Of a stretch of 64,000 nt of DNA, positions 45,339 to 49,550 are shown piece by piece. The translations under genes were made by a program, and so were the position numbers. The first letter of the stretch is position 1, and the number at the start of each line of letters is the position of its first letter. The notes beneath the pieces were generated by a model. The model was not told the DNA's origin. It searched no databases and saw nothing but the letters and a program-made list of their open reading frames with translations. The DNA is from Escherichia coli (GTDB taxonomy: Bacteria; Pseudomonadota; Gammaproteobacteria; Enterobacterales; Enterobacteriaceae), in NCBI RefSeq assembly GCF_003334305.1, contig NZ_QOWS01000006.1; one strand, given 5' to 3'.

Positions 45339-45368
45339 AACGCTGGCGTGGAGCAACACGCCAGCGTT
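45339..45368. terminator. Hairpin between convergent guaC and hofC (candidate bidirectional terminator)
   Basis: aacgctggcgtg-gagcaa-cacgccagcgtt, a 12-bp perfect stem; overlaps the hofC 3' end; no strong T-run. Confidence 0.5.
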
Positions 45369-46569
45369 ATCCCATCCCACTCATCGCATCGCCTAAATGG
45401 AAAATTGGCAGATACATCGCCACCACCAGCGTACCGATAATTCCTCCCGTTATGATCAGCAACGCCGGTTCCAGTAAGGCTGCGAGGTTATCCGCCAGCG
45501 CCATTGTGTTATCCCGATGATGATGGGCGAGGTTGTCTAACATGAGATCCAGCGAGCCGGATGCCTCTCCCGTTCTCACTAATTGCAAACAGAGCGGGCT
45601 AAACTCACCGGCATTTTTTAGCGCCAGCCAGATGGGATGACCGTTACTGATATCGTGCTGGATTTGTGTCAGAAGTTGCACCCAGTACGGGCAGCGCATT
45701 GTTTCTCTGACGCTCTCTACGCCCTGTAAAAAAGTAATGCCTGCACTTTGTGTCAGCGCCAGAATCGTAAAGATCTGCGTGAGTTTTTGTCCCCTCATCA
45801 GTGAACCCATAATCGGGATTCGTAACAACAATTTCTGCCGCGCGATAAGCCAGGTAGGTCGGCGCATCAGCAACTTATTGGCTATCGCCAGCAGAAAGCC
45901 GAACAACACCAGCAGCCAGCTCCATTCGCCACTAAAGTCTGCCAGCGTCATGATCCCCTGCGTTAGTGCCGGTAGTGGGGTGTTGAAGGTCTTATAGATA
46001 GCGGCAAACTCCGGCAGAACAAAATGCAGCATTGCCACAACCACCATGATTGCCATCGCTAAAATGATGATGGGATAACGTAACGCTGATTTCACTTTGT
46101 CGGTCAACTGACGCTGGGCTTTTTGCTGACGCGCCAGTTCAAAGCAGCATTCATCCAGCTTACCGGTCAGTTCACCCGTGCGGATCATCGCCTGATAGAG
46201 TGGCGGAAATACCTCTGACCAGGGTAATAAGGCATTGGAAAAAGCAATGCCCTGTTCGAGATCGTGCGCCAGCGATTGCAGCAACGCTTGCCATTGCTTA
46301 CAGGGATGCTGTTCCGCCAGCAGTGCCAGCCCTTCAGAAAGCGTTAACCCGGCTTTGAGTAGCGTCGCCAGTTGATGAATGACTTCCGCGCTTTTATCTC
46401 CTCGCCACTGCGCAGAATTGATGGCGATTCGCTTCAGGCTAAGTGGGGTAACCATCTGTTGCTGTAGTGCCATGAGCAGCAAAGCACGGCTCTCTGCCCA
46501 TAGCATCCCATCTTGCGCATTGCCGTCGCCGGTTATGCCATGCCAGCGCCAGAGTTGCTTACTCGCCAT
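45367..46569 (-). CDS. hofC: Type IV pilus / type II secretion platform protein HofC (GspF/PilC family)
   Basis: 400-aa polytopic protein; third gene of the ppdD-hofB-hofC operon. Confidence 0.92.
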   Translation of the reverse strand: MASKQLWRWHGITGDGNAQDGMLWAESRALLLMALQQQMVTPLSLKRIAINSAQWRGDKSAEVIHQLATLLKAGLTLSEGLALLAEQHPCKQWQALLQSLAHDLEQGIAFSNALLPWSEVFPPLYQAMIRTGELTGKLDECCFELARQQKAQRQLTDKVKSALRYPIIILAMAIMVVVAMLHFVLPEFAAIYKTFNTPLPALTQGIMTLADFSGEWSWLLVLFGFLLAIANKLLMRRPTWLIARQKLLLRIPIMGSLMRGQKLTQIFTILALTQSAGITFLQGVESVRETMRCPYWVQLLTQIQHDISNGHPIWLALKNAGEFSPLCLQLVRTGEASGSLDLMLDNLAHHHRDNTMALADNLAALLEPALLIITGGIIGTLVVAMYLPIFHLGDAMSGMG

Positions 46570-47944
46570 GCGGCATCCCCAGTACGCGGATTAACTCTTC
46601 AAAGGTGGTTAAGCCTTGCTCCACGGCCAGGCAGCCGTTTTCAAAAAGCGTACGCATACCCGCCTGTCGTGCGTGCGTTTCCAGCGATTCAACGTCGGTA
46701 TTAGCGGAAATAAGCTGACGAATGACCGGCGTTATGGGCAGAACTTCAAATAAGGCCGTACGACCATAAAAACCGTGGTAGCAATGTACACAACCGGGTG
46801 CCTGCCAGTGGGGCAGCGGCGATGGCCATACATTGTCTGGAATGTGGATGGGCTCCCCTTGCTGCCGGCGACAATGTGGGCAAAGTTTGCGTACCAGACG
46901 CTGGGCTATTACCAGCGTAAGCGCCGATGATAGCATCCAGCGGGCGACCCCCATTTGCTGTAAACGTACCAGCGTTTCGCAGGTGGAATTAGTGTGTAGG
47001 GTAGACAACACCAGGTGACCAGTTTGCGCCGCTTTAATAGCGATCTCTGCTGTTTCGCCATCGCGGATCTCTCCGATCATGATGACGTCAGGATCCTGGC
47101 GCAATAACGCACGCAACACGCCCTGAAAGGTGAGTCCGGCACGCGGATGGATTTGCGTCTGGTTTAGTCCGGCTATGGGGATCTCAACCGGATCTTCGAC
47201 GCTACAAATATTAATGTCAGCGGTATTCAGCGTTTGCAGGGCACTATAAAGCGTGACCGTTTTGCCGCTGCCTGTAGGGCCAGTTACCAGCACCAGTCCC
47301 TGTGGTTGTTGCAAGGCATGAGCAAAGTCCGCCAGTTGTAACGGCTGCATTCCAAGCGTGTTGACATCCAGTGCCTGGCTCACCTGCTGTAACAACCTTA
47401 ATACCACCTTTTCACCACCCCGACATGGTAAGGTCGCAATACGAAATGAGACGGCGTTTCCTGCCAGTTCGACAGTGAATTGCCCGTCCTGCGGCAGGCG
47501 ATGTTCCGCAATATCCAGGTTTCCCAGCACTTTTAATCTGGCGGTTAATGCGACTCCGGCATCCGGTGAAACATCCGGTAAAGGATGCAATACGCCGTCG
47601 ATACGCAAGCGGATGCGGTAGGCATTGTCCGCTGGTTCGATATGAATATCAGACGCGCGTTGTTCCAGCGCAGATTGTAACGTTCGAGTTAGCAACTCTG
47701 CTTTGGGCTGATGCTTCTCCTGAACAGCTACGGGCAATGTCTGTTGTGTGCGACTGGCGTGACCTTCCATTTGTTGGCGCGTCCAGCAGGTGATCTCAAT
47801 ACGTTTGGTGGTAGCGAAATGCAATGCGTCCAGTAGCTCATGCGAAGGTGCATCGACTACCGCAACATGAACCACCTCTTCGCTGGCATCCAGCAAGACT
47901 CCATGATAACGCAGACACAGGGCAGTGAGCTGTGGAATATTCAT
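46559..47944 (-). CDS. hofB: Type IV pilus assembly ATPase HofB (GspE/PilB family)
   Basis: 461 aa; Walker A LVTGPTGSGKT and C-terminal tetracysteine motif (CPHC...C..C). Confidence 0.93.
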   Translation of the reverse strand: MNIPQLTALCLRYHGVLLDASEEVVHVAVVDAPSHELLDALHFATTKRIEITCWTRQQMEGHASRTQQTLPVAVQEKHQPKAELLTRTLQSALEQRASDIHIEPADNAYRIRLRIDGVLHPLPDVSPDAGVALTARLKVLGNLDIAEHRLPQDGQFTVELAGNAVSFRIATLPCRGGEKVVLRLLQQVSQALDVNTLGMQPLQLADFAHALQQPQGLVLVTGPTGSGKTVTLYSALQTLNTADINICSVEDPVEIPIAGLNQTQIHPRAGLTFQGVLRALLRQDPDVIMIGEIRDGETAEIAIKAAQTGHLVLSTLHTNSTCETLVRLQQMGVARWMLSSALTLVIAQRLVRKLCPHCRRQQGEPIHIPDNVWPSPLPHWQAPGCVHCYHGFYGRTALFEVLPITPVIRQLISANTDVESLETHARQAGMRTLFENGCLAVEQGLTTFEELIRVLGMPHGE

Positions 47945-47953
47945 TGCCGCTCC

Positions 47954-48394
47954 TTAGTTGGCGTCATCAAAGCGGAAGACATCTTCGCAGGCTTGATGCA
48001 ATGCGCTGTCACTTTGAATATTGCAGTTGCGCGTCCAGCCGGTGACGCCGTTTGCGTTATCCCAACCCGGTGTCATGACGACGCTTAGCCCATTGAGACT
48101 TTCTTGCCCGGTCAGCGACACCACGCCCTTTGCCACACTCATGGCTGAAACATAGCGGGTGGTGGTAGGCGAGGGAATGCCATTGCTGCCACCGTCGCAG
48201 GTATCTAATCCACCATGTTCCAGCGCGCACAACTCTACGGCGGTACGGTAAGGCACAAAGGTTTGTAGCATGTCGGTGAGTGCGGCTTTGCGCAGGTAGT
48301 TTTGATAAGCGGGAATACCAATGGCGCTTAAAATGGCAATGATGCCAATAACCACCATCAGTTCGATAAGTGTAAAACCGCGTTGCTTGTCCAT
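47954..48394 (-). CDS. ppdD: Prepilin-like protein PpdD (type IV pilin)
   Basis: 146 aa; class III signal MDKQRGFTLIELMVVIGIIAILSAIGIPAYQNYLRKA (G/F cleavage site, conserved E+5). Confidence 0.93.
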   Translation of the reverse strand: MDKQRGFTLIELMVVIGIIAILSAIGIPAYQNYLRKAALTDMLQTFVPYRTAVELCALEHGGLDTCDGGSNGIPSPTTTRYVSAMSVAKGVVSLTGQESLNGLSVVMTPGWDNANGVTGWTRNCNIQSDSALHQACEDVFRFDDAN

Positions 48395-48596
48395 CTGTTT
48401 CGCTCCTTGATTTGGTTGGCGCTACTTTGGCAAACGCCATCAGCACAGGCGAGGGGCAAAAAACGAAACGGGAAAGCAGATTCCGAGGTTTTTTATTTCG
48501 TTGCAGCGAAAGACAAGAAATTTGCGAGGCGTTACGAAGAAAGTTGGGGAAGGGGAGATTATCCGCCCGCGATGGAGCGGATAAATCTGTCAACTA

Positions 48597-49550
<954 letters not shown>

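Follow-up and report, generated by a model that had tools for sequence, protein, structure and literature searches.

A conserved TGCAAC box lies in the intergenic region upstream of the ppdD-hofB-hofC operon of Escherichia coli, at a fixed distance from a CRP-S site, and its sequence and position resemble those of the operators of the CytR regulon. The region belongs to a window of 64,000 nucleotides (assembly GCF_003334305.1, contig NZ_QOWS01000006.1), that is, the whole stretch of DNA that was analysed, to which all coordinates refer. The operon is the already-known, normally silent type IV pilus and DNA-uptake operon of E. coli, the control of which by Sxy and CRP-S sites is textbook-level knowledge. 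In the preferred reading, to which a probability of about 0.5 is given, the spacer between nadC and ppdD is a promoter that depends on Sxy and on CRP with cyclic AMP (cAMP), and TGCAAC would be a CytR half-operator between two CRP sites, the part of CytR being what we infer from the arrangement described below.

An earlier note on the same DNA had proposed a palindrome upstream of ppdD, TTTCG-TTGCAG-CGAAA, as a candidate operator, and had remarked that it fits the CRP-S consensus poorly. The position that it gave, 48496-48511, is exact and the remark is correct; the operator itself is not borne out. The ppdD loci of 80 Enterobacteriaceae species were fetched and their upstream regions aligned, giving 81 sequences together with the window. 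All five arm pairs are intact in the window sequence only (1 of 81), and the commonest state is 1-2 of 5 pairs, which is the level of chance. Within Escherichia, and also in E. coli EC09, substitutions fall in the arms on both sides without compensation, and the central TGCAAC is never affected. That is to say, the arms are neither conserved nor co-varying in relatives, as those of a dimeric operator should be. Moreover, 0.10 occurrences of the exact pattern are expected per window, 10 of 100 shuffles contained one, and the window contains 90 perfect inverted repeats of the 5-N6-5 form of any sequence, against about 62 expected. The hairpin that the palindrome could form is weak (-2.6 and -4.0 kcal/mol, z -0.8 and -1.3), the comparison of the region with Rfam gave no family match, and the features of an intrinsic terminator or structured RNA are lacking, the stem being weak and the T-run not in the right place. 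Because of the shuffles, the 90 repeats in the window, the weak hairpin and the arms intact in one sequence of 81, the palindrome is regarded as a chance, E. coli-specific coincidence, which adds nothing to the known picture of the operon and its regulon. Although it is a perfect 5+5 inverted repeat, it is extremely improbable that it serves a dimeric regulator as a true operator, or that it works as a hairpin or terminator, and this reading has already been refuted by the lack of conservation. The six central bases are a conserved element, for a reason other than the palindrome.

The CRP site of this spacer lies elsewhere. It has been reported that CRP shifts a ppdD promoter fragment in the electrophoretic mobility shift assay (EMSA), that its binding is weak, and that Sxy raises ppdD expression 90-fold with CRP and cAMP both required (Cameron and Redfield, PMC1635313), which agrees with the assignment of the operon to the Sxy/CRP-S regulon in the earlier note; ppdD has become the standard E. 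coli reporter for the CRP-S class (PMC1635313, PMC6728893). The EMSA primers map to 48478-48607 of the window, and from these primers and from conservation the CRP-S site of ppdD was located here, in the centre of that fragment. It is a 22-bp CRP-type site with the C6 and/or G17 by which CRP-S sites are defined, conserved in relatives; its 16-bp core, TTCGT-AACGCC-TCGCA at 48523-48538, lies 12 bp further upstream than the palindrome and had been missed at the first reading. The position of the site is fixed across the 80 Enterobacteriaceae loci, TCGCA is conserved, and Klebsiella has the perfect TGCGA-N6-TCGCA. This conserved site (48520-48541) in the CRP-shifted fragment is distinct from the palindrome. 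The earlier note had named two things in advance as speaking against its operator, an unconserved palindrome and a CRP-S site elsewhere in the spacer, and both were found.

The conserved centre of the palindrome is the TGCAAC box. Offsets (+n) are hereafter counted in bp towards the gene, starting at the first base of the CRP-S core or, in the CytR promoters, of the distal CRP core, and information content was calculated from the ungapped anchored sequences of 63 non-redundant loci. The box carries 0.9-1.8 bits at its T, G, A and A and is invariant in Escherichia. TG[CT]AA occurs at +33/+34 in 50 of the 63 loci; most of the variants among ppdD orthologues are TGCAA or TGTAA and a few are TGAAA, and the first two correspond to the Y degeneracy of the CytR octamer. 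When boxes of the form TG[CT]AA or TT[GA]CA were counted in the 37-nt spacers between the CRP-type sites of these loci, 63 were observed where 10 were expected, and 50 of the 63 stand at +33/+34. When random CRP-S-like 16-mers of the window were examined, a box fell at +32 to +34 in only 5 of 1326 (0.4%), ppdD itself being one of the five. In a few genera the spacer holds the box two or three times, and in some a second (T/C)GCAAC stands at the position equivalent to 48510-48517, where E. coli has a degenerate box. Upstream of ppdD in Kluyvera sichuanensis, three tandem CTGCAACG with a period of 8 bp, together with TGTAA, fill the spacer between the CRP-type sites.

CytR operators have been described as TGCAA/TTGCA repeats (octamers AATGYAAC / GTTRCATT) placed between CRP sites, one of which must be within about 5 nt of the operator (PMC3454398). 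For comparison, the experimentally defined CytR promoters udp, deoP2, nupG and cdd of K-12 were used, in which TGCAA or TGTAA boxes lie between two CRP-type sites 50-53 bp apart. In udp, TGCAAC is at +33 and the CRP sites are 52 bp apart; in deoP2, TGCAA at +25 and TGTAA at +33 go with a spacing of 53 bp; in nupG, TTGCAA at +24 and +41 with 50 bp. The ppdD promoter has TGCAAC at +33 and a spacing of 53 bp between its two CRP-type repeats, the proximal of which matches the CRP consensus poorly, and it has the 7-mer TGCAACG in common with udp at the identical offset. The CytR promoters serve nucleoside genes, whereas the ppdD operon consists of pilus genes and is additionally Sxy-dependent; ppdD is also absent from the CytR regulon that Sernova and Gelfand describe (PMC3454398). 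In two of the CytR promoters the distal CRP site itself resembles a CRP-S site (TTTGA-N6-TCGCA in deoP2, TGCGA-N6-CGCGCA in cdd), and the CRP sites called CRP-S and those that partner CytR may be overlapping classes of weak site.

The CRP-S promoters of competence genes, such as the CRE sites of Haemophilus influenzae and Psxy of E. coli, have in common with ppdD a weak CRP site with C6/G17 (the TCGCA half-site) and dependence on CRP, cAMP and Sxy. At ppdD, unlike other CRP-S promoters, the TGCAAC box and a second repeat of weak half-sites follow at fixed distances, and the CRP-S centre is about 114 bp from the start predicted from the best-conserved -10-like element, not 61 bp as in promoters of the class I type. 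In acsP2, a tandem class I/III CRP promoter, a weak core promoter is likewise preceded by two CRP sites that are about five helical turns apart; these are ordinary CRP sites and, unlike ppdD, acsP2 is not known to have a CytR-like box. As for conservation outside the CRP site of CRP-S promoters, none has been described so far according to Sondberg et al. (PMC6728893).

Read towards ppdD, the information peaks of the spacer are the two CRP-S halves, cTGCAAc, an A5 tract, a GAA-N6-TTC repeat, a T-tract, CnCTCGC, CTGnCAnAGT and the Shine-Dalgarno sequence. Counted from where the CRP-S core begins, TGCAAC follows after 33 bp and the proximal repeat after 53 bp, with near-invariant spacing in nearly all loci, and the TG of TGnCAnAGT stands a constant 53 bp beyond the first base of that repeat. 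If TGnCAnAGT is read as an extended -10 element, the ppdD transcription start is predicted near 48417 and the two repeats are centred near -61 and -114, so that the two CRP-type sites would lie on the same face of the helix. The alpha C-terminal domain of RNA polymerase may dock at the T-tract. A terminator-like match on the plus strand, at 48469-48485, proved to be merely the proximal GGAA-N6-TTCC repeat beside the A-tract (z -0.2). A reading of GG-N10 as a sigma-54 promoter was dropped by eye on account of CC/TC, not GC, at the -12 position, and comparisons with sigma-E, sigma-32, IHF, IclR and TyrR boxes failed on the spacing.

The box could also be taken as a -35 element, with the distal CRP-S site at -61.5, a start near 48469 and the proximal GGAA-N6-TTCC repeat as a downstream operator. 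CTGCAA does lie about 34 bp upstream of such a hypothetical start, and CRP-S promoters have been described as class I-like (PMC6728893). However, the box has 3 of 6 matches to TTGACA, its pattern of conservation, strongest at AA, is unlike that of a -35 element, and the -10 that it would require lies within the proximal repeat, in the variable N6, where the final T is not conserved, for which reason this arrangement fails. A simple sigma-70 scan of the spacer found no promoter, and the far better conserved TGnCAnAGT lies downstream. TGCAAC as a -35 element was therefore rejected on the conservation pattern and the absence of a -10, and the arrangement as a whole is considered very unlikely.

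The half-sites of the proximal repeat belong to the weak TTCCA/TTCCG type of CRP-S half-site, in the classification of PMC6728893. A different protein might bind both the box and this repeat, either another member of the LacI family or a dimer recognising GAA-N6-TTC: TGnAAC has the generic shape of a LacI-family half-site, and the GAA-N6-TTC core is a poor CRP site. Against this, CytR was the best match, with six contiguous bases, among the LacI-family consensus sequences compared, and we know of no factor with GAA-N6-TTC specificity. The TTCC half-site, moreover, is a recognised weak half of E. coli CRP-S sites (PMC6728893), and binding by such another factor is held to be quite unlikely.

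The same layout was found at other pilus and DNA-uptake promoters of K-12. In ppdA, the CRP-S core TTCGAGACGCCTTCCC (TTCGA-N6-TTCCC) is followed by TGCAAC at +23 and +33 and by a second CRP-S-like site, CGGAA..., at +52; the two direct TGCAAC repeats, 10 bp apart and directly after the CRP-S-like site, are kept in Salmonella, Klebsiella, Cronobacter and Enterobacter. In hofM, the core ATCGAGCCTGCTCCCA, located at the right end of the yrfD fragment used in a published EMSA, is followed by AATGCAAC-AG-ACTGCAAG at +22/+32, of which AATGCAAC is perfect, and by a second site, TACGA..., at +53. In comEA, the core CTGAAGCCGCCTCGCA is followed by TTGCA at +26, TGTAAC at +33 and the second site TTCGCGGCCTTTTCCA at +53. 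Among more distant ppdD loci, Erwinia persicina has kept TGCGACGTCGCTTCCA, with TGCAAC at +33, and Providencia stuartii has TGCGAGTCTTCTCCCA, then AATGTAAT-AC-GATACATT, with 14 of 16 matches to the optimal CytR operator, and then TTCGTAGGTGCTCGTA at +52, so that both flanks are CRP-S-like. Complete two-box operators are present in ppdA, hofM and the ppdD of Providencia. Over the hofM elements, the synonymous positions of the opposite-strand gene mrcA are much less variable than deeper in mrcA, which is suggestive but confounded. Psxy has no box and comM has weak look-alikes only; a candidate site at dprA was dropped, as it lies inside the def coding sequence. In all, the four E. coli pilus and DNA-uptake promoters examined and the ppdD promoters of Erwinia and Providencia have the fixed layout of a CRP-S site, one or more TGCAA boxes and a second CRP-type site, that is, the geometry of proven CytR promoters. 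The wider proposal, that the TGCAA boxes are CytR operators and that ppdD, ppdA, hofM and comEA of the Enterobacterales are direct CRP-CytR-CRP targets which also need Sxy, is put forward tentatively, its chances being judged somewhat short of even.

Since the boxes occur in four promoters of the Sxy regulon, on the promoter-proximal side of the CRP-S site, Sxy or a CRP-Sxy complex might read them as a flanking DNA determinant, with CytR uninvolved; Sondberg et al. consider that Sxy may touch DNA close to CRP (PMC6728893). However, Psxy is Sxy-dependent and yet boxless, with comM little better off, and inversion of the CRP-S site of Psxy had no effect on activation (PMC6728893). Proven CytR operators at Sxy-independent promoters, moreover, have this box sequence, with the same Y degeneracy (TGCAA/TGTAA), at the same offset. 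Reading of the boxes by Sxy is accordingly regarded as unlikely.

The CytR reading can be compared with genetic results in Vibrio cholerae. It has been reported that pilABCD, pilMNOPQ, the minor-pilin cluster (VC0857-61) and comEA of this species need CytR together with TfoX, and that dprA and pilF do not need CytR; the authors left the mechanism of CytR undetermined and knew of no natural promoter where CytR stabilises CRP on a weak site (PMC4581735). The operons under CytR and TfoX are orthologous to ppdD-hofBC, hofMNOPQ, ppdAB-ygdB-ppdC and comEA of E. coli, and there is a broad parallel between the boxless Psxy and weak comM of E. coli and the CytR-independent dprA and pilF of V. cholerae (PMC4581735). 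The evidence in V. cholerae is genetic, with no site defined, and that in E. coli comes from sequence. According to the proposed model, the nadC-ppdD spacer would hold the Sxy- and cAMP-CRP-dependent promoter of ppdD-hofB-hofC, and TGCAAC would be a CytR half-operator flanked on either side by a weakly bound CRP dimer, as in udp and deoP2, so that Sxy, CRP and CytR would jointly set the expression of the pilus genes. The arrangement would suit CytR either as an anti-activator, as in the nucleoside genes of E. coli, or as a protein that stabilises CRP at weak sites, which is what the genetics of V. cholerae suggest. If this is true, ppdD, ppdA, hofM and comEA would be natural cases in which CytR acts together with CRP at weak sites, the requirement for CytR of the orthologous competence genes of V. 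cholerae would have a direct mechanism, and DNA uptake in E. coli would be linked to the availability of nucleosides. If the boxes bind CytR, both the activation by CytR in V. cholerae and the silence of the E. coli competence regulon would become testable on a 120-bp fragment.

Several points weigh against the CytR reading. All of the support for CytR at ppdD is geometry read from sequence, and the start near 48417 is a prediction. The ppdD promoter of E. coli has a single good half-site, in contrast to the two that are normal in CytR operators. Its proximal site is non-canonical for CRP and is centred near -61, while that of classical CytR promoters is at -40.5. In the GAA-N6-TTC core with its C-rich spacer, positions 7/16 are A/T, whereas CRP requires G7/C16. 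Psxy was inactive when built with two weak half-sites of this kind (PMC6728893), so that the proximal repeat is a putative CRP site. Overexpression of Sxy alone induces ppdD in cytR+ cells. The CRP-S-like site and boxes of hofM lie inside the opposite-strand mrcA codons ~9-24, and the regions upstream of ppdD in Rosenbergiella and one further contig show no clear architecture. The nominal binomial P of 7e-9 for four of six promoters is post hoc and a guide only, as the cores of ppdA and comEA were assigned after their boxes had been seen. Finally, in the literature searched, no report was found that connects CytR with either ppdD or the Sxy promoters of E. coli, or that describes CytR binding or CytR-dependent expression at ppdD; the link is apparently unreported, and plausible.

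Table 1. Elements of the nadC-ppdD spacer and genes of the operon, in window coordinates
Feature	Position	Strand	Remarks
Distal CRP-S site, 22-mer TTCTTCGTAACGCCTCGCAAAT (ppdD strand), core TTCGT-N6-TCGCA	48520..48541	.	conserved in 80 loci; inside CRP EMSA fragment
Degenerate upstream box CTTGTCTT	48510..48517	-	5/8 matches to GTTGCATT; 2 nt from distal 22-mer
Palindrome TTTCG-TTGCAG-CGAAA = TTTCGTTGCAGCGAAA	48496..48511	.	present in E. coli; arms not conserved
TGCAAC box, putative CytR half-operator type (AATGYAAC)	48500..48505	-	+33; palindrome centre; conserved
A-tract AAAAAA (ppdD strand)	48489..48494	-	conserved
Proximal inverted repeat CGGAA-TCTGCT-TTCCC	48470..48485	.	invariant core GAA-N6-TTC; centre near -61 of predicted start
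T-tract and CCnCTCGCC block	48448..48463	-	-45 to -31 of predicted promoter; information peaks; poor -35 match
Predicted extended -10 TGcCAAAGT (consensus TGnCAnAGT)	48424..48432	-	strongest non-coding block, 1.7-2.0 bits/position, 63 loci
Shine-Dalgarno AAGGAG of ppdD	48403..48408	-	read from sequence; conserved in 80/80 orthologous loci
ppdD	47954..48394	-	146 aa; major type IV pilin, prepilin N-methylation motif; NF007862 and TIGR02532
hofB	46559..47944	-	461 aa; PilB/GspE-family pilus assembly ATPase; overlaps hofC by 11 nt; NF007755
hofC	45367..46569	-	400 aa; PilC/GspF-family type IV pilus platform protein; NF007861 HofC equivalog and RefSeq annotation
Strong hairpin after nadC stop, 8-bp arms TTATCCGC/GCGGATAA	48559..48584	-	-16 kcal/mol, z -3.4; terminator-like/REP-like; outside ppdD control region

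The operon runs on the minus strand downstream of nadC, whose end at 48597 leaves a spacer of 202 bp before ppdD. The genes of the pilin, the ATPase and the platform protein, the core of a type IVa pilus operon, stand on one strand with one 9-nt gap and one 11-nt overlap at their junctions. Their identity, as given in the earlier note, is confirmed by the open reading frames and by matches to NCBIfam equivalog profiles: HofC scores 660 bits against a cut-off of 401 (NF007861), the GspE-type ATPase HofB 824 against 617 (NF007755) and the pilin PpdD 268 against 138 (NF007862). PpdD has a prepilin cleavage and N-methylation motif, MDKQRGFTLIE (TIGR02532 and NF007862, both above cut-off). The core-genome status and laboratory silence claimed for the operon also hold: 5425 of 5426 complete E. 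coli genomes contain the 3.3-kb stretch, which is 100% identical to many E. coli chromosomes, and PpdD was made by 0 of 72 ECOR strains (PMC3330819). A search with window positions 45367-48700 gave 5438 matching places, 3 of them on plasmid-labelled records, and the region is absent from one of the 5426 complete genomes.

The hairpin after the nadC stop, at 48559-48584, has no T-run, and other genera have a different G+C-rich hairpin in the same spot, resembling repetitive extragenic palindromic (REP) elements. The ppdA gene lacks a Shine-Dalgarno sequence, and 6-7 nt separate its ATG from the end of a conserved -10-like CATACT/CACACT upstream; a leaderless mRNA may be translated, or the start codon may be mis-set. 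The 120-bp spacer between mrcA and hofM is nearly invariant across four genera. In a search of representative proteins with HofB, the top-scoring distant relatives are about 1000 aa long with two matched stretches, and have the look of tandem or fused PilB-type ATPases.

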